From positions 1 through 64,000 of IMG/VR virus record IMGVR_UViG_3300009431_000002: a stretch of DNA of 64,000 nucleotides; one strand, 5' to 3'. Positions 12,273 to 26,747 of the stretch are shown here, one piece after another. The stretch is from a virus. Lineage: Duplodnaviria > Caudoviricetes. Under the pieces are notes generated by a model. It was given only the letters and a program-made list of their open reading frames with translations, did not search any database and was not told where the DNA came from. A program made the translations under genes and the position numbers. Position 1 is the first letter of the stretch; each line of letters begins with the position of its first letter.

Positions 12273-12349
12273 TGGTGCGGGTGCTCGGGATCGAACCGAG
12301 GACCTCCTGGTCCCGAACCAGGCGCGCTACCAGACTGCGCTACACCCAC
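12273..12349 (-). tRNA. tRNA-Pro(CGG)
   Basis: Cloverleaf; CCTGG-TT CGG GA-CCAGG; CCA encoded; G1:C72. Confidence 0.93.
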
Positions 12350-12352
12350 ACC

Positions 12353-12429
12353 TGGGGCCGACGCTCGGAATCGAACCGAGAACCTGCTGATTACGAGTCA
12401 GCTGCTCTGCCTGGTTGAGCTACGTCGGC
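12353..12429 (-). tRNA. tRNA-Thr(CGT)
   Basis: GCTGA-CT CGT AA-TCAGC; CCA encoded. Confidence 0.95.
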
Positions 12430-12430
12430 G

Positions 12431-12507
12431 TGGTGCCCCGACCCTGAATTGAACAGGGGACCCCGGACTTATCAGGTCCGTGCTCTACCGGACTGAGCTA
12501 CCGGGAC
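12431..12507 (-). tRNA. tRNA-Ile(GAT)
   Basis: CGGAC-CT GAT AA-GTCCG; CCA encoded. Confidence 0.95.
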
Positions 12508-12556
12508 ACGGGAACTATTCAGTTGTGCATAGGTGCGCCCACCCGGACCGGGCGGG

Positions 12557-12592
12557 CTAGATAATGGTCGTAGGTGGTGTCAGCCAACGCAT
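12557..12592 (-). CDS. Leaderless leader peptide MRWLTPPTTII (Ile/Thr/Pro operon)
   Basis: ATG CGT TGG CTG ACA CCA CCT ACG ACC ATT ATC TAG, 6 nt after TG-C-TACAGT; hairpin GCCCGCCCG-GTC-CGGGTGGGC at the stop. Confidence 0.8.
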   Translation of the reverse strand: MRWLTPPTTII

Positions 12593-12598
12593 GAGGGC

Positions 12599-12607
12599 AC
12601 TGTAGCA
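12599..12607 (-). promoter_or_regulatory. Extended -10 promoter TG-C-TACAGT
   Basis: Identical motif at 14181-14189; no good -35. Confidence 0.6.
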
Positions 12608-12622
12608 CAGGAGGTAGGGTTG

Positions 12623-12676
12623 TGGTAGCCCGACCCGGACTCGAACCGGGGACCTTCGGTATCTAGCCGAAGATCC
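12623..12676 (-). pseudogene. 3' half of a tRNA (anticodon arm remnant, T-arm, acceptor strand, CCA)
   Basis: TTCGG-CTAGATA-CCGAA GGTC CCCGG-TTCGAGT-CCGGG TCGGGCT A CCA; overlaps the stop codon of the 12663 ORF; no matching 5' acceptor strand. Confidence 0.7.
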
Positions 12677-13424
12677 CTTCCACGCGGCCGGCTCGACCCG
12701 ACTGAGTCAGGGTCTTCCCCATGATGTGCCGGGCTTGTCGTTGGGCCATCTCGCCCGCCTGCTCTGGTGACATCTCCGGTAGTTCCTTGGCGCCTCGGAG
12801 GAATCTCCTCTTCATGGCGGCCGGGACCCTCTGGCCGCTTTCCAGGAATTGATGAGCGCGGGGGTCCTTGAACACCTGCGCGAACTGCTGACGGAGAAGC
12901 TCGGTTTCCCCGGTAGCCTCTCTCATTTCCCGCAGTCGCCGGGCAGCGTGCCTCAAGCTCTTGGCTTGCCCCTTCGGAGCGGCCAGACGGTTCAGGAGGT
13001 TCAACTCCTCTACCAGCACTCCGGGGCTGAGGTGAAGACTCTTGCCTAGAGGTACGGCCTTCCTCTCCAACCCCTCATGCAGCGTGAGGAGTGTCTTTGG
13101 GCCACGGCCTTCCACCCCAGGGAGCAGGCCCTTTGCCGCAGACGGGCCGTAGAAGATTCTCCCGGCGTGACGCCCGTACCTGGACTGGAGAGCCTGCACC
13201 AGCTCTTCTGGGATCATTCCCCGCTGCCACTCGAAGAACTCTGGATGCTTGAGGGACTTGCGGATGTGGGCCTTCGTCGGGATCAGCGTCGCTCCCAGCT
13301 GACCCGCCAGCCCCCTAGACCTGGTAGGTGCCAGTCTCCTGGCTGCCGCGTACAGCTCCTGAGCGGACGCAGCCTCCTTGATCTTGCAGAGCTCGTCAAC
13401 GAAAGCCGGGAAGGAGGGACTCAC
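12663..13424 (-). CDS. Hypothetical protein with N-terminal FVDELCKIKEAA motif
   Basis: ORF track; codon usage less GC3-biased than flanks; contains LHEGLE segment. Confidence 0.7.
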   Translation of the reverse strand: MSPSFPAFVDELCKIKEAASAQELYAAARRLAPTRSRGLAGQLGATLIPTKAHIRKSLKHPEFFEWQRGMIPEELVQALQSRYGRHAGRIFYGPSAAKGLLPGVEGRGPKTLLTLHEGLERKAVPLGKSLHLSPGVLVEELNLLNRLAAPKGQAKSLRHAARRLREMREATGETELLRQQFAQVFKDPRAHQFLESGQRVPAAMKRRFLRGAKELPEMSPEQAGEMAQRQARHIMGKTLTQSGRAGRVEGIFG

Positions 13425-13433
13425 GCTCAGAGA

Positions 13434-13829
13434 CTACCCCACCTCGTAGTCGGCCGTAAAGCGGATACCCTTCTTCTGCCCGTTCTTGGGCGGGGTGATC
13501 CGCAACGCGGCTACGCGGATGGCTACATCTTCTACGGGCACCAGGTAGACCTTGTCCAGATCGGGGCAGTAGACACCGAAGAGCTCGACTTGCCCCCTGT
13601 ACCCCTTCCGCTTCCTGGTGCGGTAATCCACGCTGCAGGGGTCGAACTGCACCGCGCCGTTCCGCAGGCGCCCGGTCTTGCACTGGATGCGCTTGAACTC
13701 CCCGTCGTCGTCCATGACGAGGTCGTACCGTTGGTTGTCCCCGAAGGGCTGGAGCATGACCTTCCCTGCCTTGAGGAGGGTGCCGAGGATCACGCCTTCC
13801 GACTTCTCACCGACTTCCTTGGTGTTCAT
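13434..13829 (-). CDS. PD-(D/E)XK family endonuclease (homing-type)
   Basis: GEKSEGVI...PFGDNQRYDLVMD...IQCKTG; leaderless promoter upstream. Confidence 0.85.
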   Translation of the reverse strand: MNTKEVGEKSEGVILGTLLKAGKVMLQPFGDNQRYDLVMDDDGEFKRIQCKTGRLRNGAVQFDPCSVDYRTRKRKGYRGQVELFGVYCPDLDKVYLVPVEDVAIRVAALRITPPKNGQKKGIRFTADYEVG

Positions 13830-13835
13830 GGGGCC

Positions 13836-13864
13836 AGCGTACCTGAGAGCGTCGGGTAGGTCAA
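13836..13864 (-). promoter_or_regulatory. Promoter TTGACC-17-TACGCT, 6 nt before ATG (leaderless)
   Basis: Read directly. Confidence 0.7.
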
Positions 13865-13874
13865 CCGGAGGTGT

Positions 13875-13950
13875 TGGTAGGTCTGGCTGGGCTCGAACCA
13901 GCGACTTCTGCCGTGTGAAAGCAGCACTCTCCCAACTGAGTTACAGACCC
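13875..13950 (-). tRNA. tRNA-Val(CAC)
   Basis: CTGCT-TT CAC AC-GGCAG; CCA encoded. Confidence 0.93.
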
Positions 13951-13988
13951 ACTGACACCGCTGCTCTCCCTAGCTGAGCTACCGGCCC
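13951..13988 (-). pseudogene. 5' half of a tRNA (acceptor strand + D-arm), truncated
   Basis: GGGCCGG TA GCTC AGCTAGGGA GAGC A GCGG... abutting tRNA-Val; no T-arm. Confidence 0.65.
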
Positions 13989-13989
13989 G

Positions 13990-14066
13990 TGGTGGAGGCG
14001 ACAGGAATCGAACCTGCGACCTGCTGCGTGCAAGGCAGCTGCTCTCCCAGCGTGAGCTACGCCCCC
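13990..14066 (-). tRNA. tRNA-Ala(TGC)
   Basis: GCTGC-CT TGC AC-GCAGC; G3:U70; CCA encoded. Confidence 0.95.
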
Positions 14067-14111
14067 ACGGCGAAGATGTAGATGTAGAGGGTCGCTCCCC
14101 GAACCGGGGAG

Positions 14112-14174
14112 CTAGATCGCGGCCACGACAACTGGCAGCGCGAGGAAGACGGAGAGTCGTGCGAGACGTTCCAT
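14112..14174 (-). CDS. Leaderless leader peptide MERLARLSVFLALPVVVAAI (Ala/Val operon)
   Basis: 6 nt after TG-C-TACAGT; hairpin GCTCCCCG-GTT-CGGGGAGC at the stop. Confidence 0.8.
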   Translation of the reverse strand: MERLARLSVFLALPVVVAAI

Positions 14175-14180
14175 GCCGCG

Positions 14181-14189
14181 ACTGTAGCA
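14181..14189 (-). promoter_or_regulatory. Extended -10 promoter TG-C-TACAGT
   Basis: Identical to 12599-12607. Confidence 0.6.
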
Positions 14190-14193
14190 CAAG

Positions 14194-14269
14194 TGGCGCG
14201 AGCTGTGGGAATCGAACCCACCCAGTTGGTTTTGGAGACCAACTCGCCTGCCTTGGGACATGAGCCCGC
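14194..14269 (-). tRNA. tRNA-Trp(CCA)
   Basis: TTGGT-CT CCA AA-ACCAA; atypical D-arm; CCA encoded. Confidence 0.88.
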
Positions 14270-14271
14270 AC

Positions 14272-14347
14272 TGGAACCCCCGACTGGACTCGAACCAGCG
14301 CACGGCGGATTAGAACTCCGCTGCTCTTCCAACTGAGCTACGGGGGC
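14272..14347 (-). tRNA. tRNA-Arg(TCT)
   Basis: GCGGA-GT TCT AA-TCCGC; CCA encoded. Confidence 0.9.
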
Positions 14348-14404
14348 CGACTTGACTGAACTCCCCTACTTGACCGGCTGCTCAAGCGGCCGGGTTTGGT
14401 CAAG

Positions 14405-14480
14405 TGGTACAGACGTCAGGGGTCGAACCTGAAACCACTGGGGCCACATCCCAGCGCTCTGCCAGTTGAGCTACGTCTGC
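14405..14480 (-). tRNA. tRNA-His(GTG)
   Basis: CTGGG-AT GTG GC-CCCAG; A73 and no encoded G-1. Confidence 0.88.
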
Positions 14481-14483
14481 ACG

Positions 14484-14561
14484 TGGTACCCGCGGGAGGA
14501 CTCGAACCTCCGACCTTCCGGTTCGTAGCCGGACGCTCTAGGTCCACTGAGCTACGCGGGC
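14484..14561 (-). tRNA. tRNA-Arg(ACG)
   Basis: TCCGG-CT ACG AA-CCGGA; CCA encoded. Confidence 0.95.
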
Positions 14562-14564
14562 ACG

Positions 14565-14639
14565 TGACCCCGGCAGGACTCGAACCTGCGACCTCCGCGT
14601 CCGGAGCGCGGCGCTCTGGGTCCACTGAGCTACGGGGCC
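14565..14639 (-). tRNA. tRNA-Arg(CCG), CCA not encoded
   Basis: CCGCG-CT CCG GA-CGCGG. Confidence 0.92.
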
Positions 14640-14651
14640 GGTTGTCAAAGA

Positions 14652-14727
14652 TGGCGGTGCCGCCAGGACTCGAACCTGGAACCAGAGCGTTAACAGCGCC
14701 CCGCTCTAGCCATTGAGCTACGACACC
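14652..14727 (-). tRNA. tRNA-Asn(GTT)
   Basis: GGGCG-CT GTT AA-CGCTC; G1:C72; CCA encoded. Confidence 0.93.
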
Positions 14728-14728
14728 G

Positions 14729-14803
14729 TGGTTGCTGCGCCTGGGGTCGAACCAGGGACCTGCCGGTTATGAGCCGGCTGCTCTACCGCTGAGCCACGCA
14801 GCA
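14729..14803 (-). tRNA. tRNA(CAT), elongator Met more likely than Ile2; not initiator
   Basis: GCCGG-CT CAT AA-CCGGC; lacks the GGG/CCC initiator stem. Confidence 0.85.
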
Positions 14804-14806
14804 TCG

Positions 14807-14879
14807 AGGGTCGACCGGGACTCGAACCCGGATCTCCGGATTAAAGGTCCAGGGCGTTATCCATTACGCTCATCGACCC
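14807..14879 (-). tRNA. tRNA-Lys(TTT), CCA not encoded, C33
   Basis: CTGGA-CC TTT AA-TCCGG; acceptor GGGTCGA/TCGACCC. Confidence 0.8.
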
Positions 14880-14880
14880 A

Positions 14881-14956
14881 TGGAGGGTGGAGGGGGACTC
14901 GAACCCCCAACCGCCGGATTAAGAGTCCAGCGCTCTACCTGTTGAGCCATCCACCC
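14881..14956 (-). tRNA. tRNA-Lys(CTT)
   Basis: CTGGA-CT CTT AA-TCCGG; CCA encoded. Confidence 0.95.
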
Positions 14957-14962
14957 GCAGTT

Positions 14963-15008
14963 CTCCGTCTCCACCTGCCGCCCCTTCGGGCAACAAGTAG
15001 ACACGGAG
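14963..15008 (-). promoter_or_regulatory. Long leader hairpin (putative attenuator element)
   Basis: CTCCGT/ACGGAG, TCTACTTG/CAGGTGGA, TTGCCC-GAAG-GGGCGG; G-U pairs work only on the minus strand. Confidence 0.65.
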
Positions 15009-15022
15009 GGGCGGACGCAGAT

Positions 15023-15073
15023 TTACCTGTGCTTGTTCCAGCGGTGCATGAAGGTGGGTCTGACGAAGGTCAT
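15023..15073 (-). CDS. Leaderless leader peptide MTFVRPTFMHRWNKHR (Lys/Met/Asn/Arg/His/Trp operon)
   Basis: ATG ACC TTC GTC AGA CCC ACC TTC ATG CAC CGC TGG AAC AAG CAC AGG TAA, 6 nt after TACGCT. Confidence 0.85.
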   Translation of the reverse strand: MTFVRPTFMHRWNKHR

Positions 15074-15079
15074 GTGGCG

Positions 15080-15108
15080 AGCGTAGACCAGCTCGAGATG
15101 GAGGTCAA
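15080..15108 (-). promoter_or_regulatory. Promoter TTGACC-17-TACGCT
   Basis: Read directly; same hexamers as 13836-13864. Confidence 0.75.
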
Positions 15109-15111
15109 CGG

Positions 15112-15195
15112 ATCCCGACATGAATCCCGACTTCGTGTCGGGATAGCCCCACGCACGTCATCCGGATCCCGACAGGGGTTGACGACACAGTGTCG
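15112..15195. repeat. Operator-like repeats between divergent tRNA promoters
   Basis: ATCCCGAC at 15112, 15124, 15166 and inverted at 15137-15144; palindrome CGACAC-A-GTGTCG at 15183-15195. Confidence 0.6.
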
Positions 15196-15207
15196 CCGTG
15201 CTGTACT
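15179..15207 (+). promoter_or_regulatory. Promoter TTGACG-17-TGTACT, 7 nt before ATG
   Basis: Paralogous to TTGACA-17-TGTAGT at 18744-18772; -10 is non-canonical. Confidence 0.6.
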
Positions 15208-15214
15208 CCGGCCC

Positions 15215-15271
15215 ATGCACTCCTTCGACATCCAATTCGGATTGTCGCTACAGCTCCTGGGTACCCAGTAG
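15215..15271 (+). CDS. Leaderless leader peptide MHSFDIQFGLSLQLLGTQ (Leu/Gly/Gln operon)
   Basis: Read directly; paralog at 18678-18737; followed by alternative GC hairpins. Confidence 0.85.
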   Translation: MHSFDIQFGLSLQLLGTQ

Positions 15272-15327
15272 TCGCCGCCCCCGTACGCCCGTAACCCCGG
15301 GTAGCCGGGGGCGGGAGAAGTGCGTTT

Positions 15328-15413
15328 GGGAGAGTGGCGGAATGGTAGACGCGCGGGTTTCAGGAGCTCGTGTCCTTCGCGGCGTGGGGGTTCGACTCCC
15401 CCCTCTCCCACCA
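15328..15413 (+). tRNA. tRNA-Leu(CAG)
   Basis: CGGGT-TT CAG GA-GCTCG; long variable arm; A73, CCA. Confidence 0.93.
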
Positions 15414-15415
15414 GT

Positions 15416-15500
15416 GCCGGAGTGGCGGAACGGTAGACGCGCGGGTCTGAGGGGCTCGTGTCCGAGTGGCGTCCGGGTTCGACTCCCGGTTCCGGCACCA
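15416..15500 (+). tRNA. tRNA-Leu(GAG)
   Basis: CGGGT-CT GAG GG-GCTCG; long variable arm; CCA. Confidence 0.93.
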
Positions 15501-15514
15501 CAACAAGAACTCGT

Positions 15515-15592
15515 GCGGGAGTAGCTCCAACTGGCTAGAGCAGCGGCCTTCCAAGCCGACGGTTCAGGGTTCGAGCCCCTGTTCCCGCACCA
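15515..15592 (+). tRNA. tRNA-Gly(TCC)
   Basis: CGGC-CT TCC AA-GCCG; A73; CCA. Confidence 0.9.
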
Positions 15593-15593
15593 T

Positions 15594-15671
15594 GTGCCGG
15601 GGCGCAAGGCGTCATAGGGAGAAGGGGACGGCCTCGCTCCTGTTTCGCGTGGGGAAACCCACCCCCGGCAC
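15594..15671 (+). ncRNA. Unclassified tRNA-sized structured RNA
   Basis: 9-bp GTGCCGGGG/CCCCGGCAC closing stem, GTGGG-GAAA-CCCAC arm, two inner hairpins; no TTC loop, no CCA. Confidence 0.5.
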
Positions 15672-15673
15672 CT

Positions 15674-15749
15674 GTGGGCATGGCGCAGTCGGTGGCGCGT
15701 CGGGTTGCCAATCCGAAGGTCGCGGGTTCGAGCCCCGCTGCCCACACCA
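15674..15749 (+). tRNA. tRNA-Gly(GCC) with atypical acceptor
   Basis: TCGGG-TT GCC AA-TCCGA; U2:A71, A73; CCA. Confidence 0.87.
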
Positions 15750-15757
15750 ACAGCTTT

Positions 15758-15846
15758 GCGAGCGTGGCGGAATTGGTATACGCGCCGGATTCAAAATCCG
15801 GTGGTCCTTCGCGGCCGTGCAGGTTCGATGCCTGCCGCTCGCACCA
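15758..15846 (+). tRNA. tRNA-Leu(CAA)
   Basis: CCGGA-TT CAA AA-TCCGG; long variable arm; CCA. Confidence 0.95.
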
Positions 15847-15848
15847 GA

Positions 15849-15924
15849 TGGGGAGTAGTTCAGTTGGTAGAACGGTTGGCTCTGGACCAGCATGTCGGGG
15901 GTTCGAGTCCCTCCTCCCCATCCA
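15849..15924 (+). tRNA. tRNA-Gln(CTG)
   Basis: GTTGG-CT CTG GA-CCAGC; U1:A72; CCA. Confidence 0.93.
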
Positions 15925-15981
15925 TCGTGAAACCCGGCTCGAAATCGGGATAAGGGCCCCGAACCCGAAGCAGGAGGTAGC

Positions 15982-18060
15982 ATGCCCGAATTCAAGCCGT
16001 TCGCCGAGCTTGTCCGATCCGCGTTCCAGGAGATGGCCGCCGGTGGGCTCTTCGTCGTCAACATCAGTGGGGACGACCTGTACGAGTCCTACCTGGGTGC
16101 GTTCCCGGACGGCACCAATCCCGTCTTCCGTGAGCGCACCGAGCACGACTGCAGCAGCTGCAAGCACTTCATCCGCCGCGTGGGCATGGTCATCGACCAG
16201 GACCGCAACACGGTCTGGGACAAGGCCGCCCGAACGGCCGAGTACCCCTACAACGAGGTGGCCTCCGACCTGGCCGCCATGGTCAAGGCCGCTCCGATCC
16301 GCGACGTCTTCCGCGTCCAGGAGAGCGGCATCGGCACCGCCATGAACCGCGGCGTGAGCCCGTCGGGCCAGGTCGAGCGCTGGCACCACTTCCACACCGG
16401 CAGCATCCCGAAGCGCTTCCGCGCGGCGAGCCCGGGGGAGGCCCAGGGCGCGTACCGCACCACCGTCCAGGTCTTCCGGCGCGGGCTGGAGGAGCTGACC
16501 ACCGACGCCCTGGAGACCGTGCTGGCGCTGATCGACGCCAACAACCTCTATCGGGGCGAGGAGCACCGCGAGAAGGTGGCGGGCTTCCTCAAGACGCAGC
16601 AGGAGTTCCTCGACCTCGGCGCCGTTGACCGGGAGCGCTTCGTCTGGGCACGCGCCGACGACCCGGCCACCCGCTTCCGCAACACCGCCATCGGCACCCT
16701 GGTCCAGGACCTGAGCGAGGGCATGGACGTCACGAAGGCGGTCAAGCGGTTCGAGGCGAAGGTCGCGCCGGAGAACTACAAGCGCACCTCGGCCGTCATC
16801 ACCCCCGGCATGGTCAAGGAGGCCATGAAGACCATCACGACGATGGATCTGGAGCCCGCCCTGGAGCGGCGGTTCGCCCGCGTCGAGGACGTCAACGTCA
16901 ACGACGTGCTGTGGGTGGACAACCAGGTCAAGCCGCTGATGGCCGGCGGCCTCGGCGACATGCTCATGGACCACGCCCAGGCAGCGCAGGGCTACGAGCT
17001 CGACGAGAAGCGCGCCGAGGACATCGCCGTCGACGAGTTCCTGGCCAGCGTGCTCCCCGAGGCCGCGGCCGTGGAGCTGCTGCTGAAGACCGCGCACCTG
17101 GGCAACCTGATGTCGCTCACGGCGCCGGTCCACCCGGCGCCCCACCAGCTGTTCCAGTGGGACAACGACTTCGCCTGGTCCTACGCCGGCAACATGGCCG
17201 ACTCCGAGCTGCGCAAGCGCGTGTCCGCCGCCGGCGGACGCGTGGACGGGGCGTTCCGCTTCTCTCACTCGTGGAACCACGACAAGCGCAACGCCTCGCT
17301 GATGGACCTCCACGTCTTCATGCCCGGGAACGGGACCTCGTACTCCCGGCCCGGGACCACCCACGACGTCTACGGCAACAACGAGCGCGTGGGGTGGAAC
17401 CACCGACAGCATCCCAGGTCCGGCGGCGTCCAGGACGTGGACTACGTGAAGGAGGCGCCTCCCGGGTACATCCCCGTCGAGAACATCACGTTCCCCGACA
17501 TCACGCGGATGCGTCCCGGCACGTATATCTGCAAGATCCACAACTGGCAGCTCCGACAGCCCACGCAGGGCGGCTTCCAGGCCGAGATCGAGTTCGGCGG
17601 GCAGGCGTTCACCTACGAGCACCTGGCACCCCTCAAGCACAAGGAGTGGGTGACGGTCGCCACGGTGACGCTGAAGCATGGCGAGTTCTCCATCGAGCAC
17701 CACCTGCCGTGCGGCACGGCCGCCCAGGAGAAGTGGGGCCTGACGTCCGAGCGGTTCGTCAAGGTCAACTTCGTGACCCTGAGCCCCAACCACTGGGGCG
17801 ACAACGCCGTGGGCAACCGCCACACGCTCTTCGTGCTCGACGGCGCGAAGAACGACGAGCCCTGCCGAGGCATCTACAACGAGTTCCTGCACCCCCGCCT
17901 GATCAAGCACCGCAAGGTGTTCGAGGTCATCGGCGACAAGACGAAGTGCCAGCCCACCGAGGGCCAGCTGTCCGGCGTCGGCTTCTCGTCCACGAAGCGC
18001 GACGCCGTGCTCATCAAGATCGACAACCAGCGCCTGTACCGCGTCCGGTTCGGCGCGTAG
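15982..18060 (+). CDS. Large conserved-looking phage protein (692 aa), function unknown
   Basis: AGGAGG RBS; YLxxFPxGTN...EHDCSSCKHFI N-terminal Cys motif; RFSHSWN...MDLHV C-terminal beta domain. Confidence 0.85.
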   Translation: MPEFKPFAELVRSAFQEMAAGGLFVVNISGDDLYESYLGAFPDGTNPVFRERTEHDCSSCKHFIRRVGMVIDQDRNTVWDKAARTAEYPYNEVASDLAAMVKAAPIRDVFRVQESGIGTAMNRGVSPSGQVERWHHFHTGSIPKRFRAASPGEAQGAYRTTVQVFRRGLEELTTDALETVLALIDANNLYRGEEHREKVAGFLKTQQEFLDLGAVDRERFVWARADDPATRFRNTAIGTLVQDLSEGMDVTKAVKRFEAKVAPENYKRTSAVITPGMVKEAMKTITTMDLEPALERRFARVEDVNVNDVLWVDNQVKPLMAGGLGDMLMDHAQAAQGYELDEKRAEDIAVDEFLASVLPEAAAVELLLKTAHLGNLMSLTAPVHPAPHQLFQWDNDFAWSYAGNMADSELRKRVSAAGGRVDGAFRFSHSWNHDKRNASLMDLHVFMPGNGTSYSRPGTTHDVYGNNERVGWNHRQHPRSGGVQDVDYVKEAPPGYIPVENITFPDITRMRPGTYICKIHNWQLRQPTQGGFQAEIEFGGQAFTYEHLAPLKHKEWVTVATVTLKHGEFSIEHHLPCGTAAQEKWGLTSERFVKVNFVTLSPNHWGDNAVGNRHTLFVLDGAKNDEPCRGIYNEFLHPRLIKHRKVFEVIGDKTKCQPTEGQLSGVGFSSTKRDAVLIKIDNQRLYRVRFGA

Positions 18061-18071
18061 AGAGGAGAACT

Positions 18072-18485: not shown

Positions 18486-18496
18486 CCCCACGCCCT

Positions 18497-18525
18497 GGGA
18501 GGGCCGGCACGCCGCCGGTCCTCCC
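18497..18525. terminator. Hairpin between convergent units
   Basis: GGGAGGGCCGGC-acgcc-GCCGGTCCTCCC. Confidence 0.55.
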
Positions 18526-18537
18526 GTTAGCTCGGAA

Positions 18538-18622: not shown

Positions 18623-18677
18623 ACACGCACTTCTCCCGCCCCCGGCTACCCGGGGTTCGGGCGTACGGGGGCGGCGA

Positions 18678-18737: not shown

Positions 18738-18743
18738 GGGGGC

Positions 18744-20713: not shown

Positions 20714-21404
20714 CAACTACCAGCAGTGGAGCGAGATCATCGAGGATCTGACGGGCGAGGAGATCGCCTGGATCAACGAAGACCTCCTCCGGTTCAGTCC
20801 GGGGGAAGACGGAGGCATCATCGAGCGTGGCGGGGACACCCTGCTGCTCATCGACAAGAACGGCAACTGGACTCCGCTGGGAGAGCAGTGGCGCGAGAAG
20901 CACCCGGCGTTCACCGAGGACGACTACGCCTGGCCCAGCTTCGACTGGTCCATCAGCACCTACAAGGGAGAGCCCCACATCTGGTTCCGGGGCGACTCCG
21001 GCTGCAACCTGGAGCACCTCGCTGACTTCGTGCACAGGTTCATCAAGAAGTTCCGCCCAGACATGATCTTCAAGCTCACCTGGGCCGAGTGGTGCTCTGG
21101 CCCCCGTGTCGGCGAGTTCGGCGGCGGCTGGTTCGTCGCGCACAAGGGTGGCGTGGAGTGGGGGAACACCTACGAGGACACCAAGATCTGCGCCGACCGG
21201 ATCAAGCACCCCTGGCTGACCGACAGGGTCCAGTTCGCCCGTCTCCTCTGCGAGATGAGCGCCCTGGGACTGCCGGACGGTGAGGACAACTGGGATCTCT
21301 TCAACGACCTGAAGGAGAACATGGACCTCACCGACAATGACATCGACGAGCTGTTCGAGCGCGCCCACAAAGTGTGGGAGGACGCGAAGGAGAGGATGAC
21401 GTAA
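20706..21404 (+). CDS. Hypothetical protein
   Basis: Coupled ORF with typical codon bias. Confidence 0.7.
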   Translation: MTDNYQQWSEIIEDLTGEEIAWINEDLLRFSPGEDGGIIERGGDTLLLIDKNGNWTPLGEQWREKHPAFTEDDYAWPSFDWSISTYKGEPHIWFRGDSGCNLEHLADFVHRFIKKFRPDMIFKLTWAEWCSGPRVGEFGGGWFVAHKGGVEWGNTYEDTKICADRIKHPWLTDRVQFARLLCEMSALGLPDGEDNWDLFNDLKENMDLTDNDIDELFERAHKVWEDAKERMT

Positions 21405-21718
21405 TGGAGGTGCACCCACCTGTGCGGGTGTTCTGCTTCGAGTGTGGAGACGAGATCGAGGTGGTGGACACACAACGAGAAGAAGACGGCTCGCTGTCTG
21501 TCAGCATCTCCGGTGCCTGTGAGCGCGAGTGCCAGCAGGCGGCAGAGAAGTCCTCCTGGGCGGCGCACCAGCGCGAACAGCAGATACAAGAGAGGGCCGA
21601 CCGCCTACTCCGTGAGGAGCGGCAGAACGCCGAAACCGAGCGGTTCCTGCGCGATGAGCGCGACCGCAAAAACAAACAGGATCGCGCCTTCTGGCGCGCG
21701 ATGGGATGGAACCGATGA
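21404..21718 (+). CDS. Hypothetical protein (CxxC Zn ribbon, coiled coil)
   Basis: TAATG coupling; CFEC and CEREC. Confidence 0.6.
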   Translation: MEVHPPVRVFCFECGDEIEVVDTQREEDGSLSVSISGACERECQQAAEKSSWAAHQREQQIQERADRLLREERQNAETERFLRDERDRKNKQDRAFWRAMGWNR

Positions 21719-21951
21719 TCCTGCCTGGCTACAAGACCAACTACGAGACCCTGCTCCGCGCCGCCAAGGCTGGCGACCTGGCGCTGGTGGAGTGCACCAG
21801 CATCGAGACCGGAGAGCCCGTCTTCGTGATCTGTAGCGTCCACGTGAGCGATGGCGAGTACGTCATGACTCCACTGGCCAAGATGTTCGACGGCAACCCC
21901 TACGAGGAGGTGGCTCCTCCCAGCTCGGAGAGGCCAGAGAATGAGAGCTAG
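21715..21951 (+). CDS. Hypothetical protein
   Basis: ATGA coupling. Confidence 0.65.
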   Translation: MILPGYKTNYETLLRAAKAGDLALVECTSIETGEPVFVICSVHVSDGEYVMTPLAKMFDGNPYEEVAPPSSERPENES

Positions 21952-22141
21952 GGTCACCGCCACCCTCGACAAGCGCGTGCTGGCGCTACTCAAGGAGGAG
22001 GCAGCCCGTATGAACACGTCGGTCTCACACTTGATCGAGCGGAGCATCTGGAGGGCAATCAACTCCCCCGAAGGGCTAGGTGTGGACGATGTCGACGAAG
22101 CCATCAACAGGTACAAGGAAAGGAAAGATCATGCCGACTGA
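21941..22141 (+). CDS. Ribbon-helix-helix (CopG-like) DNA-binding protein
   Basis: RVTATLDKRVLALLKEEAARMNTSVSHLIE pattern. Confidence 0.65.
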   Translation: MRARVTATLDKRVLALLKEEAARMNTSVSHLIERSIWRAINSPEGLGVDDVDEAINRYKERKDHAD

Positions 22142-22143
22142 GG

Positions 22144-22587
22144 ATGGGCAGCATGCTACTTCGTGAGGCGCGGGTCACCTACACCAGCAGGCGCATCGAC
22201 CTGAAGCGCAAGTCCCTCAAGGGTTCCCAGGAGGCGTACGACGTGGTGAAGCACATCTTCACCCCGGGAGACCCCCAGGAGCGCTTCTACGTCGTCCTGC
22301 TGAACGCCAAGCACATGTACGAGGGCCACGCGCTGGTGTCTGTGGGGACTCTGGACGCAGCCATCGTTCACCCCCGAGACGTGTTCCGCCCCGCCGTTGC
22401 ACAGAGCAGCGCACTTGTAATCCTGGCCCACTACCACCCCTCGGGCGACCCAACACCTTCCGCAGAAGACGTGGCCGTCACCAAGCGGCTGGTCGCTGCG
22501 GGGGAGGTTCTGGGCATCGACGTACTGGACCACTTGATCATCTCGGATGAGAGCTGGTGCTCCATGCGGGACAGAGGAGAGATATGA
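22144..22587 (+). CDS. radC: RadC-like JAB domain protein
   Basis: VHPRDVF...AHYHPSGDPTPSAED...LDHLII. Confidence 0.9.
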   Translation: MGSMLLREARVTYTSRRIDLKRKSLKGSQEAYDVVKHIFTPGDPQERFYVVLLNAKHMYEGHALVSVGTLDAAIVHPRDVFRPAVAQSSALVILAHYHPSGDPTPSAEDVAVTKRLVAAGEVLGIDVLDHLIISDESWCSMRDRGEI

Positions 22588-22760
22588 GCATCGCCATCAC
22601 CGGGACCCCCAACCGGGAGCGCACCTACGACGCGGGCTTCGGCGGCGCGGACAACCCTTTCCCCGACGACCCCGAGCTGTCCCGCTACTACGAGCTGGGG
22701 CGGCGGTGCCGAACCGATTGGCGGATGGAGCAGGCGATGGGCCGAATGGAGGCCCAGTGA
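22584..22760 (+). CDS. Small hypothetical protein
   Basis: Coupled to neighbours. Confidence 0.55.
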   Translation: MSIAITGTPNRERTYDAGFGGADNPFPDDPELSRYYELGRRCRTDWRMEQAMGRMEAQ

Positions 22761-22966
22761 CCGACCCCAAACAACTGGCCCGGGACCTGTTGCGGGACTT
22801 CGTCAGCGACATGCGCTGGGCCAAGAAGCAGGACGTCGCGTACCTCAAGAAGGTCCGCAAGGAGTTCCAGCTCTTCTGGCCCACCAGGCACAACCCCAAG
22901 TTCGACGAGTTTGGCTGGCCCGTAGTGCTGGCTGAGTTCAGCACCTTCAAGGAGGGAACACCATGA
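22757..22966 (+). CDS. Small hypothetical protein
   Basis: GTGA coupling, GGAGG RBS. Confidence 0.6.
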   Translation: MTDPKQLARDLLRDFVSDMRWAKKQDVAYLKKVRKEFQLFWPTRHNPKFDEFGWPVVLAEFSTFKEGTP

Positions 22967-23202
22967 TCACCTGGGACGCCAAGGCTGTCGTAATCTGGTG
23001 CGGTACGTGTACGGCTCATGGCCGGACACTACGGCTCGAAGTCGAACCGTCAACCCTGGTCGTGGCCGATACCGTCTGGTACTGGCGAGTCCGCGACGAG
23101 GAGGGCGCTGTCCAGAAGAACGGGACGCGGCACTCCGCTCTGCAGGCCAAGGCATCCTGTACCCGAGCGGCTAACAAGTACGCCAAGGCGCCGCGGCCGT
23201 GA
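22963..23202 (+). CDS. Small hypothetical protein
   Basis: ATGA coupling, GGAGG RBS. Confidence 0.55.
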   Translation: MITWDAKAVVIWCGTCTAHGRTLRLEVEPSTLVVADTVWYWRVRDEEGAVQKNGTRHSALQAKASCTRAANKYAKAPRP

Positions 23203-23296
23203 GTGTCCTTGACCAACTCTCTGCCGTCTCGTGCATCGCAGTGGCACTGCTGCTCATCCCCTGTGTCGCGCACCTCATCACTGAAAGGAAAGACCG

Positions 23297-23830
23297 TTGA
23301 TCACCTACGAAGACCTGATCCGTCCGCTCAAGGAGGGCGGGCACTACGAAGTGTCCCCCCAGACCATCTACAGCTTCCTGACGCTCGTCAAGAAGGGCGA
23401 CCGGGCGTTGCTCTACCAGGGCCACATGTTCGACAGCAGCCAGATGGGCAAGACGGCCCTGACCGTAGCTGGCCCCGGCCGTACCATCGACGACCCCGAC
23501 AACCCGCCCAAGCGTATCGGCAACGCGCCGTCCAACTTCAAGGAGCTGGAGGGTGAGGTGGACATCCCCAGCCTCCGCGCGGGCATCAAGGACTTCGACC
23601 CCATCTCACGCGAGAAGTGCGTCGCCGCGGCCGAGAAGTACCTCGGAGACGGGCAGCACGGCGAGCTGCTGTGGGAGACCTACCTCTGCACCATCACCAA
23701 TTCGGGCTACCAGGCAAGCGTGAAGGGTGAGATGACCCCGCTCAAGGAGCTGGGCCTCGTCTCGTACCGAGCGAAGTACCCGGCTGGGTGGACGCTCACC
23801 AGCAAGGCCTGGAAGATCCTGGAGGCGTGA
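23297..23830 (+). CDS. Hypothetical protein
   Basis: AAGGA RBS, TTG start, typical codon bias. Confidence 0.65.
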   Translation: MITYEDLIRPLKEGGHYEVSPQTIYSFLTLVKKGDRALLYQGHMFDSSQMGKTALTVAGPGRTIDDPDNPPKRIGNAPSNFKELEGEVDIPSLRAGIKDFDPISREKCVAAAEKYLGDGQHGELLWETYLCTITNSGYQASVKGEMTPLKELGLVSYRAKYPAGWTLTSKAWKILEA

Positions 23831-24012
23831 TGTCCGACGCACAACGCATCGAACAGCTGGAGGAGCAGGTCGCGCGTGTCCGCCTGATGTGCAAGACCCT
23901 GCTGGAGGAGATCGAGGAGAACCCGGTCGCCCAGGTCGGCAACGCGGCCATGGGCATCCGAACCGCTGTACGGGCGATCAACCACGCCCTGGGCGAGACG
24001 GAGGAGCCGTGA
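23830..24012 (+). CDS. Small hypothetical protein
   Basis: TGATG coupling. Confidence 0.6.
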   Translation: MSDAQRIEQLEEQVARVRLMCKTLLEEIEENPVAQVGNAAMGIRTAVRAINHALGETEEP

Positions 24013-24245
24013 GCCGCATCTCCTGCGGCGTCCCCATCTACAAGCCCAACGATGAGTGCCTCTGGTACTACTGGCTCGACGGCAAGCAGGGCTACTACAG
24101 CGGCTGGCTGTGGGCACGTACCCGCATCGGCGCCCGGCGCAAGATCAAGAAGAAGCACCCCAACAACAGCATCGACTCGGTGCTGCACCAAGACCAGTAC
24201 CACGGTCGCAGTCAGCACTGCCCGTTGGACAGAGGAGGACCATGA
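24009..24245 (+). CDS. Small hypothetical protein
   Basis: GTGA coupling. Confidence 0.55.
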   Translation: MSRISCGVPIYKPNDECLWYYWLDGKQGYYSGWLWARTRIGARRKIKKKHPNNSIDSVLHQDQYHGRSQHCPLDRGGP

Positions 24246-24715
24246 GCAAGTTCGACATCGACTTCGAGACTACCCGAGACGGCACGCGGTGCTGGGGCGT
24301 CATCTACAGGGATGGCGAAGAGGTCTGGAGGGACAGGCCCTGGCCTGCCGACGGCAGCGCCCAGCAGGCGGGCTACGAGAAGCTGAAGAAGCTACGAAAG
24401 GCGGAAGCGGTACTGGATGACGCTTCCCAGGAGGCCCCCAAGTCAGCCAACACGGTCTGCCGTGTTGAGTTTCGGCTCTACTACGACGTCCCAGAGCACC
24501 TCGTCAAACGCGCTGGGGACACCATCATCAGCGCCATCGAGTGCATGGTCGCGGACCACGATGTGGTTCCAGAGGTCCGCACACTTCGGGCCGACGAGGT
24601 GGACCAAGACCTAGTGGACTACGCCCTGGGCTTCCTGGACGAAGGCTGCCCCACCTGTGGCGGCAGCCTGGACGACGGCATCTGCATGAGCGGGTGCGAC
24701 AACCTCCTCCCCTGA
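24242..24715 (+). CDS. Hypothetical protein with C-terminal Zn ribbon
   Basis: GAGGA RBS; CPTC...CMSGC. Confidence 0.65.
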   Translation: MSKFDIDFETTRDGTRCWGVIYRDGEEVWRDRPWPADGSAQQAGYEKLKKLRKAEAVLDDASQEAPKSANTVCRVEFRLYYDVPEHLVKRAGDTIISAIECMVADHDVVPEVRTLRADEVDQDLVDYALGFLDEGCPTCGGSLDDGICMSGCDNLLP

Positions 24716-24759
24716 CAGGAGGCCCGCGTTCTGCAGTGCCTTCTTTCTTAGATCAAAGT

Positions 24760-24848
24760 TGGCGGAGAGGGGGAGAATCGAACTCCCGGCCCTGTCGGGT
24801 CAACGCCTTAGCAGGACGCGGTAGGGCACCAACGCCTACAGCCCCTCC
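24760..24848 (-). tRNA. tRNA-Ser(GCT) with extended D-stem
   Basis: GCGTC-CT GCT AA-GGCGT; D-stem GTAGG/CCTAC; G73, CCA. Confidence 0.85.
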
Positions 24849-24926
24849 TTGCCGCTCGAGCACGCACCCAGAATCACAGAAGCTCCGAACATACCGGCCC
24901 TTTGTTCGGAGCTACTCCGAACATTG

Positions 24927-25012
24927 TGGCGGATGGAGAGCGGATCGAACGCTCGCTGGTGTCCCAGGCCTCGACTTTCCAAGCCGGCACCTTGCCACTC
25001 GGTCACCCATCC
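24927..25012 (-). tRNA. tRNA-Ser(GGA)
   Basis: CGGC-TT GGA AA-GTCG; long variable arm; G73, CCA. Confidence 0.9.
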
Positions 25013-25413
25013 GTGTTGGAGGAGGGTGGGGGATTCGAACCCCCGCACCCAGGGTCACTGGACTCGCCGGATTTCCGGACCTTGACCCCCCTTTTGCGCA
25101 GCTCTGCGCGCCAGGTGCTGTCGCCTAGTGCATCACCTGTGGCGAGGCAGTTGCCCAGGACAGGTACCCGGCAGTGTGCCCTACCGGCAACCCAGTCCTC
25201 CCCCACGTATTCATGGATGCCCCCATCTTGGTCGACGGCGACCATACGGTCGGGAGGAAGGTCGAGTACACGTGACACCTGCGTCCAGACGTCGTCGATG
25301 ACATCGGGGCTGTGCCTAGACCGCGTAGCATGCCAAGGGACCGTGGGAAGTGCCCCAGCGAAACAGGTCCGCACGATCACAATGGCGTCCTCGTTGGCGC
25401 CGTGCTCACACAT
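25003..25413 (-). CDS. Hypothetical protein reading through the tRNA remnant
   Basis: Start MCEHGANED overlaps the HNH stop; C-terminus encoded by tRNA-like sequence. Confidence 0.5.
   Translation of the reverse strand: MCEHGANEDAIVIVRTCFAGALPTVPWHATRSRHSPDVIDDVWTQVSRVLDLPPDRMVAVDQDGGIHEYVGEDWVAGRAHCRVPVLGNCLATGDALGDSTWRAELRKRGVKVRKSGESSDPGCGGSNPPPSSNTDG
25017..25091 (-). pseudogene. tRNA-like remnant lacking D-arm and anticodon (possibly ex-Ser(TGA))
   Basis: Acceptor GGGGGGT/ACCCTCC, CCGGA-AA-TCCGG arm, variable hairpin, perfect T-arm, T CCA. Confidence 0.65.
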
Positions 25414-25876
25414 CGTTTTTCTTCTCCAGTCCGTAGTGCTCCTCGGCGTGGCAGTTGGGGCACAGCAGCTCCAGGTTCTCTGGGTCGTCCGTGCCCCCGT
25501 CAGCGCGGTGCACCTTGTGGTGCACAATCAGGATTTCCGGCAGTCGGTTATACGGGCACCGCTCACACTGCTCTCCACGGAGCTCCCCGAGCATCTTCCG
25601 GAGACGCTTCTTGCGCGCCATGTGGCTATTAGGTTGTCCCTGCCCATATTTGATGCCTGTCCTTTTCTTGTTCGAGCAGGCCTTGCTGCAGGTGATCCTG
25701 CGGCTGTTACCGGCCAGAAACTCGTCGCCGCACACCGGACAGGTCTTCGGCTTCCTGCACCACTTCCCATAGCAGGCCTTGCTGCAGAAGACCTTTCCGC
25801 TCTTCGAGTTCAGATCGCGCTTCCTCCGGTAGACGGGCTTCTCGCAGACAGCACACTCGGCATTGGGTTTGTGCAT
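25406..25876 (-). CDS. HNH endonuclease with N-terminal Cys/Zn fingers
   Basis: IVHHKVHRADGGTDDPENLELLCPNCHAEEH; TG-C-TATGAT -10 upstream. Confidence 0.92.
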   Translation of the reverse strand: MHKPNAECAVCEKPVYRRKRDLNSKSGKVFCSKACYGKWCRKPKTCPVCGDEFLAGNSRRITCSKACSNKKRTGIKYGQGQPNSHMARKKRLRKMLGELRGEQCERCPYNRLPEILIVHHKVHRADGGTDDPENLELLCPNCHAEEHYGLEKKNDV

Positions 25877-25909
25877 GATATGAAATCATAGCACACCCAA
25901 TACCAGAAG

Positions 25910-25995
25910 TGGCGGGCAGGGTGGGAGTCGAACCCACGGAGCTTTCGCCCACTGGTTTTCGAGACCAGCACCATAAGCCACTCGGACACCTGCCC
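25910..25995 (-). tRNA. tRNA-Ser(CGA)
   Basis: CTGGT-CT CGA AA-ACCAG; G73, CCA. Confidence 0.95.
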
Positions 25996-26193
25996 TCACT
26001 TCTGCTTGGGCGGGTCGGCCTTCTCTCGTGCCTTACCAGACTCGGCCAACCCTCCCAGTCGCTCGATCCGCAGACCGTAGTGGTGGGTTGACTCACCTGG
26101 CTTCAGCGCCGCCATCTTCATGCCGAGCCCGGGCTCGTTCCATGGCGCGTCGGCCAGCACCTCCGCATGCTTCTCTCGTCTGTCCTCGGCCAT
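25996..26193 (-). CDS. Small hypothetical protein inside tRNA operon
   Basis: GGAGG RBS before MAEDRREK. Confidence 0.6.
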   Translation of the reverse strand: MAEDRREKHAEVLADAPWNEPGLGMKMAALKPGESTHHYGLRIERLGGLAESGKAREKADPPKQK

Positions 26194-26242
26194 CTGGGCC
26201 TCCGTTTTGCAACCCAACGTCCTTGACAGGACGGGCATCTTG

Positions 26243-26330
26243 TGGTGGGCCGGGGAGGGATCGAACCTCCAGGGTCGCAATGACTCCGGGTCTACAGTCC
26301 GGCGCGCTTCCAGTTACGCTCTACCGACCC
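26243..26330 (-). tRNA. tRNA-Tyr(GTA)
   Basis: CCGG(A)-CT GTA GA-(C)CCGG; variable arm; CCA. Confidence 0.9.
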
Positions 26331-26346
26331 ACGTGTATTCAGTTGT

Positions 26347-26422
26347 TGGCGGAGACGACGGGGCTCGAACCCGCTACCTCCCGGGCGACAGCCGGGCGTC
26401 CTTCCACCAGGACCTCGTCTCC
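26347..26422 (-). tRNA. tRNA-Asp(GTC)
   Basis: CCCGG-CT GTC GC-CCGGG; G73, CCA. Confidence 0.95.
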
Positions 26423-26425
26423 GCA

Positions 26426-26501
26426 TGGTGGATCGGGCTGGAGTTGAACCAGCGGCACCGAGATTTTCAGTCCCGTGCTCTACCTGCTGAGCTACCGATC
26501 C
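26426..26501 (-). tRNA. tRNA-Phe(GAA)
   Basis: CGGGA-CT GAA AA-TCTCG; CCA. Confidence 0.95.
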
Positions 26502-26504
26502 ACA

Positions 26505-26580
26505 TGGAGCAGGCATCCGGACTCGAACCGGAGATGACCGGAGCTGCAATCCGGCGCCTTACCAACTTGGCTATGCCCGC
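26505..26580 (-). tRNA. tRNA-Cys(GCA)
   Basis: CCGGA-TT GCA GC-TCCGG; U73, CCA. Confidence 0.95.
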
Positions 26581-26591
26581 TCAAACCTCTG

Positions 26592-26637
26592 CTCTCCCAT
26601 CCTGCGCCCCTTCGGGGCCAGGACAGGTCACGGAGAG
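26592..26637 (-). promoter_or_regulatory. Long leader hairpin homologous to 14963-15008
   Basis: CTCTCC/GGGAGAG, TCCTG/CAGGA, GCCCC-GAAG-GGGC. Confidence 0.65.
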
Positions 26638-26649
26638 ACGCAGACGCAG

Positions 26650-26712
26650 TTATGCGGAGTCGCTATCGAAGCAATAGGAAGACGATGACAGGAGGGGTGC
26701 AGCGGTGTGCAT
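26650..26712 (-). CDS. Leaderless leader peptide MHTAAPLLSSSSYCFDSDSA (Cys/Phe/Asp/Tyr/Ser operon)
   Basis: ATG CAC ACC GCT GCA CCC CTC CTG TCA TCG TCT TCC TAT TGC TTC GAT AGC GAC TCC GCA TAA, 6 nt after TACGGT. Confidence 0.88.
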   Translation of the reverse strand: MHTAAPLLSSSSYCFDSDSA

Positions 26713-26718
26713 GGGGCG

Positions 26719-26747
26719 ACCGTACCTCAGCCTGTCGAGGAGGTCAA
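26719..26747 (-). promoter_or_regulatory. Promoter TTGACC-17-TACGGT
   Basis: Read directly. Confidence 0.75.

Follow-up and report, generated by a model that had tools for sequence, protein, structure and literature searches.

Codon-listing leader ORFs at the head of phage tRNA operons: a candidate sensor of decoding capacity

How do phages control their tRNA genes? Such genes are usually discussed as helpers for codon usage or as spares against tRNA-cleaving defences, and to our knowledge the control of their expression is essentially unknown. Here, we analyse a member of the Caudoviricetes (IMG/VR record IMGVR_UViG_3300009431_000002), whose genome is a single contig of 201,921 bp with 67.3% G+C and whose first 64 kb make up the stretch of DNA under study, referred to as the window. 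Each block of tRNA genes in this phage is headed by exactly one ATG-started short open reading frame (ORF), a leader that lists the amino acids of the tRNAs encoded behind it. The units share one architecture, the codon content of their leaders is operon-specific and non-random, selection acts on this content, and the design recurs in other phages. Very probably, the leaders form a new, ribosome-operated sensor that ties the expression of tRNAs to how well the corresponding codons are being read.

Architecture and codon content of six leader units

ARAGORN predicts 29 tRNA genes in the entire genome, all of them inside 12273-26580. They are laid out as five co-oriented blocks, or operons (op1 to op5), plus one lone duplicated Leu gene (op4b), and as a set they serve 19 amino acids, Glu being absent. 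All six units follow a common design, consisting of a sigma-70-type promoter, an ATG-started ORF of 11-20 codons, a GC-rich hairpin and the tRNAs. Direct reading of the sequence bears out a preliminary description of this DNA, made from the letters alone, with respect to the shared architecture and to the sequences and coordinates of the six leaders. The units comprise the following features.

Operon 1
12599-12607 (-): promoter, an extended -10 element TGC-TACAGT without a -35 element, ATG 6 nt on
12557-12592 (-): leader ORF MRWLTPPTTII and stop codon; sensor codons ACA CCA CCT ACG ACC ATT ATC
12537-12557 (-): hairpin GCCCGCCCGG-u-CCGGGUGGGC, beginning at the G of the stop codon, without a U tract
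12273-12507 (-): tRNAs Ile(gat), Thr(cgt), Pro(cgg) (ARAGORN, Rfam)

Operon 2
14181-14189 (-): promoter, an extended -10 element TGC-TACAGT, ATG 6 nt on; directly 3' of the op3 tRNA-Trp
14112-14174 (-): leader ORF MERLARLSVFLALPVVVAAI and stop codon; sensor codons GTT GTC GTG GCC GCG
14094-14112 (-): hairpin GCUCCCCG-guu-CGGGGAGC, adjoining the stop codon
13875-14066 (-): tRNAs Ala(tgc), Val(cac) (ARAGORN, Rfam)

Operon 3
15080-15108 (-): promoter TTGACC-17-TACGCT, ATG 6 nt on
15023-15073 (-): leader ORF MTFVRPTFMHRWNKHR and stop codon; Met, His, Arg, Trp, Asn and Lys all present in the final 8 codons
14963-15008 (-): two-tier hairpin of 20 bp, 14 nt beyond the stop codon, without a U tract
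14194-14956 (-): tRNAs Lys(ctt), Lys(ttt), Met, Asn, Arg(ccg), Arg(acg), His, Arg(tct), Trp

Operon 4
15179-15214 (+): promoter TTGACG-17-TGTACT with TGC extension, ATG 7 nt on; palindrome CGACACAGTGTCG in the spacer
15215-15271 (+): leader ORF MHSFDIQFGLSLQLLGTQ and stop codon; GGA, TTG, CAG, CTC, CTG and GGT match one operon anticodon each
15275-15314 (+): hairpin CCGCCCCCG...CGGGGGCGG with a small hairpin inside
15328-15924 (+): tRNAs Leu(cag), Leu(gag), Gly(tcc), Gly(gcc), Leu(caa), Gln(ctg)

Duplicated unit op4b
18636-18772 (-): promoter TTGACA-17-TGTAGT-6-ATG, leader MHVSDIQVLGLSLQLLGIQ and stop codon (18737-18678), hairpin (18636-18674)
18538-18621 (-): tRNA-Leu(cag), followed by a U-less GC hairpin (18496-18526)

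Operon 5
26719-26747 (-): promoter TTGACC-17-TACGGT, ATG 6 nt on
26650-26712 (-): leader ORF MHTAAPLLSSSSYCFDSDSA and stop codon; codons TCA TCG TCT TCC TAT TGC TTC GAT AGC GAC TCC
26587-26639 (-): two-tier hairpin, CUCUCC...GGGAGAG around GGCCCCgaaGGGGC, 10-25 nt beyond the stop codon, without a U tract
24760-26580 (-): tRNAs Cys, Phe, Asp, Tyr, a small ORF, Ser(cga), an HNH gene, Ser(gga), Ser(gct)

Every amino acid served by an operon is present in the operon's own leader (3/3, 2/2, 6/6, 3/3 and 5/5 for op1 to op5), just as the preliminary description had claimed. To score this match, we took the best segment of a leader at +1 or -1 per residue, required full coverage of the operon's amino acids, and compared the result with stop-free six-frame windows of the genome. 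The leaders of op1, op3 and op5 reached p values of about 3e-6 to 9e-6 with self-matches counted, and no other window equalled them: only self-matches were returned for op1 among 350,512 windows and for op5 among 312,162, and the op3 leader was the sole window out of 328,218 with its score and coverage. For the op2 and op4 leaders, p was about 7e-3 to 8e-3. Permuting leaders over operons, a check that the preliminary description had proposed, placed the true assignment at the top of 120 permutations with a score of 37, the next best of the other 119 scoring 27.

The codons themselves are chosen in an unusual manner. Rare ones, making up less than 10% of their synonymous family, account for 14 of the 40 sensor codons (p<1e-5 relative to codon usage in this phage), examples being ATT (2%), CTA (1%), TCA (3%), TAT (3%) and GTT (3%); by the same comparison, the 37 sensor codons (of 40) that are distinct within their own leader are equally beyond expectation (p<1e-5). 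Rare regulatory codons occur in some classical leaders, such as leuL, and we know of no precedent for the synonymous diversity. Assuming standard wobble, about 30 of the 40 sensor codons are readable by the operon's own tRNAs, and about 10 are unreadable by phage tRNAs (ACA, CCA, CCT, ACC, GTT, GTC, GCC, CAA, CTA and TCA). The match between leader and tRNAs is therefore one of amino acids and not strictly of codons, which qualifies the codon matching originally described.

Selection on the listed residues is visible in the paralogous leaders of op4 and op4b. None of the nine Leu, Gly and Gln positions differs in its amino acid (two changes are synonymous), as opposed to four of the eight other positions (Fisher p about 0.03), and the op4b leader, which heads a Leu-only unit, has one Leu codon more than that of op4.

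With regard to the promoters, the -10 element ends 6-7 nt 5' of the start codon in all six units, and all starts are ATG. The spacing from a sigma-70-type promoter to the ATG that had been reported thus holds throughout; a full promoter does not, as op1 and op2 carry an extended -10 element (TGCTACAGT) only and lack a -35 element. In op3, op4, op4b and op5, the order is TTGACx, 17 nt, a TAnnnT-like hexamer, 6 or 7 nt, ATG, with op4 and op4b having both the -35 and the extended -10 element. A Shine-Dalgarno sequence is absent 5' of the ATG in each of the six leaders. This promoter-ATG geometry predicts leaderless mRNAs, whose transcription would start at the leader ATGs.

According to a pattern scan of the whole genome, promoters of this kind cluster almost exclusively in the 15-kb tRNA island, the remainder of the 202-kb genome giving no match; this fits with the rest of the genome being transcribed by the phage's own polymerase. 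The pattern TTGAC-17-TAnnnT-6/7-ATG occurs nine times in 202 kb, with four occurrences belonging to leaders and one to a nuclease gene inside the island, and TGCTAnnnT 5' of an ATG is found only at leaders and at one HNH gene, all inside the island. The nuclease gene, located among the tRNA genes at 13434-13829 (-), encodes a PD-(D/E)XK endonuclease (Pfam PF11645) and has its own TTGACC-17-TACGCT-6-ATG; the HNH-type gene at 25406-25876 (-), likewise among tRNA genes, has its own leaderless-type promoter, TGCTATGAT-8-ATG. Between the divergent op3 and op4 promoters, a gap of 70 bp (within 15100-15200) harbours three copies of ATCCCGAC(A), two of which form a 13-bp inverted repeat (15112-15144), and the palindrome CGACACAGTGTCG in the op4 spacer (15183-15195) belongs to a family dispersed over the genome, with another copy at about 87633. 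Repeats and palindrome look like an operator, and op4 may hence also answer to a DNA-binding protein. At its other end, after position 15924, op4 continues without a hairpin into a gene at 15982 with a strong Shine-Dalgarno sequence, encoding a protein of 692 amino acids with no assigned function that is widespread in phages (~50% identity to proteins of EBPR siphovirus 2 and Pseudomonas phage Lu11). Since no hairpin intervenes between the op4 tRNAs and this gene, the op4 leader may govern a protein gene, too.

The same design in other phages

Leaders of the same type precede tRNA genes in other phages, where we chose candidates by promoter motif and downstream tRNA, with the matches visible during the choice. 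Mycobacterium phage Phabba of cluster C has three leaders. The first lies behind TGCTACAGT-7-ATG, reads MFALLSLSSSLRLS and is followed by tRNAs for Ser, Leu, Leu and Leu (p=2e-4); the second, with the TGCTACAGT motif, reads MRTNRLNRQQ ahead of Gln and Asn; and the third, behind TGCTACGGT-7-ATG, has 24 codons that include YRPWH and precedes an array beginning with Pro, Trp and Tyr. About 200 cluster C records match the Ser/Leu leader region. In the cluster C phages Alice, ET08 and StephanieG, the Ser/Leu leader reads MFARLSLSSSLRLS, and in Tonenili it reads MIAFRLSLSSSLVS, with LSLSSSL kept while the Ser codons are synonymously changed and with a hairpin of different sequence and like fold. The Gln/Asn leader is MRTSSQQNRQQ in both Alice and Tonenili. 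In Mycobacterium phage StAugustine, TGCTATGCT-7-ATG and a leader beginning MSGRRWQLPQQRNYR precede an array for Trp, Asn, Gln, Lys, Val, Thr, Ile, Arg and Tyr; here, the ORF extends 17 nt into the tRNA-Trp, with no hairpin in between.

Outside the mycobacteriophages, Microbacterium phage A3Wally (MZ150783.1) carries two leaders, MRKFYEFDLHLEPLWGV ahead of Pro, His, Met, Asp, Glu, Tyr, Phe and Leu, and MTSSKRNQWSVTGTTVNGSSGVL ahead of Ser, Lys, Gly, Thr, Val, Asn, Trp, Arg and Gln. In the second, 21 of 22 residues belong to the operon's set and all nine amino acids (9/9) are covered. The tRNA names in the A3Wally record seem to read the anticodon as a codon ('tRNA-Trp(tgg)', for instance, is Pro with anticodon tgg according to ARAGORN), and both leaders agree with the ARAGORN identities and not with the record's product names. 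In Caulobacter phage phiCbK (NC_019405.1), a leader beginning MSKTYRQFVRQIQVVRNI lies 5' of Phe, Val, Ile, Gln and Gly. A further block of this phage has tRNAs for Pro, Lys, Leu, Ala and Ser downstream of gp335, a 45-codon 'hypothetical protein' (2041-2178 of the examined piece of the locus) that is rich in Leu, Ser, Lys, Ala and Pro and annotated between a promoter and an annotated terminator; judging from its composition and position, gp335 is probably not a protein gene but a leader peptide.

Pooling eleven leaders, 127 of 185 residues fall into the set of their own operon, compared to 60.8 +/- 9.9 expected by permutation (p<5e-6), and for the six leaders from other phages alone the true assignment is the best of 720 (1/720). 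The search of other phages suggested in the preliminary description was thus fruitful in cluster C, StAugustine, A3Wally and phiCbK, and returned no clear leader in two of the seven further lineages that we examined, namely Streptomyces phage Success, which has only a weak GTG-started ORF (MFERLFE) 5' of an HNH gene, and Gordonia phage GMA2, in which tRNA-like remnants continue the array and Orf58 shows no codon match. Overall, the idea of a translated sensor put forward in that description gains support from the statistics, from the selection seen between op4 and op4b and among cluster C phages, and from four other lineages.

The A3Wally and phiCbK leaders are followed by canonical terminators, composed of a GC stem and a U run. 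In A3Wally leader 1, the ORF segment GGAGCCUC pairs with the 5' arm of the terminator, GAGGCUCC (p=0.007), and in phiCbK block 3 a 13-nt stretch of the ORF pairs with the terminator's 5' arm (folding free energy, dG, -26.9; p<0.001). In both, the pairing segment lies just downstream of the sensor codons. Such a layout reads as classical attenuator wiring, in which a stalled ribosome would free the antiterminator and an advancing ribosome would cover it. For the remaining three of the five leaders tested in this way (A3Wally leader 2 and phiCbK blocks 2 and 1b), pairing between ORF and terminator arm was not above that of shuffled sequences.

Output and polarity of the putative sensor

What might these leaders do to the tRNAs behind them? 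The sensor as such is well supported; its output and polarity in this phage we infer from the leader layout and from the wiring seen elsewhere. In the model we favour, host RNA polymerase would start at the A of the ATG to give a leaderless mRNA, each tRNA operon being sensed separately. A 70S ribosome would translate the ORF of 11-20 codons, the latter half of which spells out the amino acids that the downstream tRNAs carry, with synonymous codons that appear deliberately varied and include very rare ones. How fast this ribosome moves would show how much charged tRNA is available for precisely the amino acids listed. The U-less, GC-rich hairpin would act as a stop or pause element between ORF and tRNAs: if the ribosome runs through and departs, transcription would end there, either directly or helped by Rho/NusG on the mildly C-rich leader, and if the ribosome is held at hungry sensor codons, the polymerase would continue into the tRNAs. 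The outcome would be negative feedback, operon by operon, in which a tRNA set is made when its codons decode slowly—be it that host tRNA is degraded, that an anticodon nuclease is active or that the phage tRNAs have not yet been made.

On balance, we hold this full model, combining sensing with read-through upon stalling in each operon, to be probable, if only just. It predicts that the leaders are translated and that the hairpins serve as terminators, possibly with the help of Rho, and its trigger may be anticodon-nuclease defence, starvation or simple feedback. We favour read-through upon stalling because the same wiring is visible in two leaders of lineages with the same sensor grammar, and because under no other logic would the phage profit from a separate codon list for each operon.

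The leader hairpins comprise 8-20 bp with a dG of -16 to -38 kcal/mol, and start 0-3 nt after the stop codon in op1, op2 and op4/4b, and 14-25 nt after it in op3 and op5. Long GC stems of up to 17 bp without U tracts are found at gene ends genome-wide (e.g. 39746-39774, 90954-90991, 129195-129228 and 163193-163220), only one of about 40 intergenic hairpins is followed by TTTT (150209-150228), and canonical terminators are not enriched in this genome. For these reasons, the leader hairpins look like the phage's normal stop signals. The op2 hairpin, moreover, is the first one after op3 and must also end the op3 transcripts, if anything does.

Several observations nevertheless weigh against the stall-dependent read-through we favour. 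None of the six leader hairpins is followed by a U tract, as had been noted in the preliminary description, so that this hallmark of intrinsic terminators is lacking, and pairing of the ORF with a hairpin arm, as expected of an antiterminator, was not above that of shuffled sequences in any of the six leaders. When a ribosome was placed at every codon and the RNA allowed to refold to equilibrium, op3 showed no structural switch with the ribosome at any codon, and the op1 and op2 hairpins were lost only with the ribosome at the stop or the final 2-3 codons; the sole clear alternative fold, CCCCGG-guag-CCGGGG, appeared in op4/4b when the stop-proximal arm was masked. Where the hairpin adjoins the stop codon (op1, op2 and op4), the polarity expected from simple occlusion is, for most sensor codons, the opposite one. 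Stalling at a sensor codon that phage tRNAs are unable to read would go unrelieved by making the operon's tRNAs, and op4b keeps Gly and Gln codons in its leader although it supplies tRNA-Leu only—a mismatch that fits with a recent duplication. All six ORFs have more C than G ((C-G)/length 0.08-0.22), within the range of the genome background except in op5; this mild skew is compatible with Rho loading and is not evidence for Rho. Leaderless translation of the leaders in this phage's host is assumed. Finally, no close relative that could provide within-lineage covariation of the leaders was found, either by megablast and blastn against 50,697 phage records, or by IMG/VR scans with two flanking proteins and with a degenerate op3-leader pattern, or by a metagenome scan; the top match had 57% protein identity and no tRNA arrays nearby.

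The same sensor might work with opposite polarity: the hairpin would stop or pause the polymerase unless a close ribosome melts it, and stalling would shut the tRNAs off. This would amount to an amino-acid-specific, stringent-like brake that avoids a flood of unchargeable tRNA and ends untranslated read-through from upstream. The stop-adjoining geometry, which extends to the cluster C Ser/Leu leaders, fits with this polarity at least as well as with the other. Further points in its favour are the refolding result, with hairpin formation prevented only by a ribosome on the final 2-3 codons or the stop, the lack of a detectable antiterminator in this phage, and a synonymous spread that includes unreadable codons and suits the sensing of an amino acid rather than of single isoacceptors. 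However, the op3 and op5 hairpins, 14-25 nt past the stop codon, are beyond the reach of a terminating ribosome, A3Wally leader 1 and phiCbK block 3 share the sensor design and are wired classically, and positive feedback on a stable RNA would be an unusual design. We regard the opposite polarity as unlikely, while keeping it as the main rival.

Alternatively, a translated sensor could have a post-transcriptional output, with the position of the ribosome setting the folding of the precursor, its processing by RNase P or RNase E, or its stability, and the hairpin being a processing or stabilising element. The U-less hairpins would suit such a scheme, as would the StAugustine ORF, since a ribosome translating 17 nt into the tRNA-Trp must disturb the folding of that tRNA, and the ability of 5' AUGCAC in op4/4b to pair with GUGCGU just 5' of the first tRNA. 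Yet, lineages with canonical terminators directly after the ORF point to transcriptional control, and we know of no precedent for ribosome-gated processing by RNase P, making this explanation rather improbable. That there is no sensing at all—the ORFs being frames that arose by chance or encoding small functional peptides, with the hairpins merely terminating upstream units—might be argued from the several residues per leader that are unmatched to the operon and from the Success and GMA2 arrays, but is very improbable: the five matches have a joint probability far below 1e-10 even when about 100 positions per operon are allowed for, no permutation scores as high as the correct assignment, codon choice is non-random, sensor residues are conserved while their neighbours change, and the design recurs in unrelated phages. 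On the strength of the statistics and the substitution pattern, we rejected chance frames and functional peptides.

Known leader systems and the genomic setting

Ribosome-mediated attenuation is classically represented by trpL, hisL, leuL, pheL, the multivalent thrL and ilvL, and pheM of pheST. The phage leaders resemble these attenuators in having a short ORF between promoter and genes, an enrichment of regulatory codons, rare codons and a hairpin after the ORF, and, like thrL and ilvL, each leader would sense several amino acids. They differ in that the regulated genes are the tRNAs themselves, such that the product sensed is the product made, and in that the mRNA is predicted to be leaderless. 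Where classical leaders have runs of one codon, the phage leaders name as many as six amino acids, each once or twice and in varied synonymous codons. Those in the window also lack a U tract and a detectable antiterminator, whereas the terminator is present in A3Wally and phiCbK.

In mycobacteria, ribosome pausing at codons for the sensed amino acid within leaderless polycysteine short ORFs controls operon expression, with one ORF per operon (10.1101/834739). The phage leaders are similar insofar as a sensory short ORF opens a predicted leaderless mRNA and each operon has its own, but where the polycysteine system senses one amino acid (10.1101/834739), the phage leaders list a different set per operon. 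A second difference from the polycysteine type is that tRNA genes follow each leader and that a ribosome-binding site to control is absent.

Rho-dependent control by leader ORFs is exerted by tnaC of Escherichia coli and by mgtL and mgtP of Salmonella, the latter two sensing charged tRNA-Pro via Pro codons. As in those cases, the ribosome on the leader ORF would, in our proposal, decide on continued transcription without an intrinsic terminator. Unlike tnaC and mgtL, the phage leaders are short (85-132 nt), mostly structured past the stop codon and placed ahead of tRNA genes, and their Rho dependence is only proposed. None of these compared systems—classical, polycysteine or tnaC/mgtL—is known to control tRNA genes. 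Our full-text literature searches likewise returned no description of leader peptides controlling tRNA genes, in agreement with the novelty asserted in the preliminary description.

The closest counterparts are hence the leaders of phiCbK, A3Wally, the cluster C phages and StAugustine, which obey the same grammar of promoter, ORF and tRNAs, usually with a hairpin and with one leader per tRNA block. Hairpin-plus-U terminators distinguish phiCbK and A3Wally from the present phage and the mycobacteriophages, whose hairpins are U-less and often adjoin the stop codon. As to whether codon-listing leaders represent a general, undescribed grammar for the regulation of tRNA genes, we consider the case evenly balanced. 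Under this broader proposal, in phages of several bacterial phyla each block would bear a translated 'barcode', failing decoding capacities, be it through decay of host tRNA, anticodon nucleases or starvation, would be read block by block and only the tRNAs concerned adjusted, and in high-GC hosts U-less hairpins would go along with a factor-dependent or pause-based output unlike that of textbook attenuation.

If true, phages would gauge their decoding capacity separately for each amino acid and answer with the matching tRNA set, the grouping of phage tRNA genes would be explained, and leader-peptide attenuation, familiar from amino-acid operons for half a century, would extend to the tRNAs themselves. 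In practical terms, the leaders allow tRNA transcription units to be delimited, and tRNA identities to be checked, from sequence alone. The idea is testable, as the same leaders are present, unannotated, in about 200 cluster C mycobacteriophages growing on Mycobacterium smegmatis and in phiCbK of Caulobacter.

Turning to the phage itself, an Rfam search over 12-27 kb gave matches to the tRNA clan only, with no T-box or other known RNA leader family, and plasmid tRNA arrays matched by blastn at the tRNA level only. The terminase has an identity of only ~26% to anything, and a ChlI-like protein matches gut phage contigs. At its gathering score, Rfam supports 25 of the 29 tRNA genes called by ARAGORN, and the Trp gene scores 36.7 bits against the tRNA-clan model. 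One call of 77 nt just upstream of the op1 promoter, 'Ser(aga)' (12623-12699), had no Rfam match and is doubtful, probably the relic of a tRNA. A second relic is a fragment resembling a T-arm and acceptor, GGGGGTTCGAATCCCCCACCCTCCTCCA, at about 25040-25075 and 5' of the tRNA-Ser(gga). Some of the phage's tRNAs are similar to actinophage tRNAs, others to tRNAs of Gram-negative phages.

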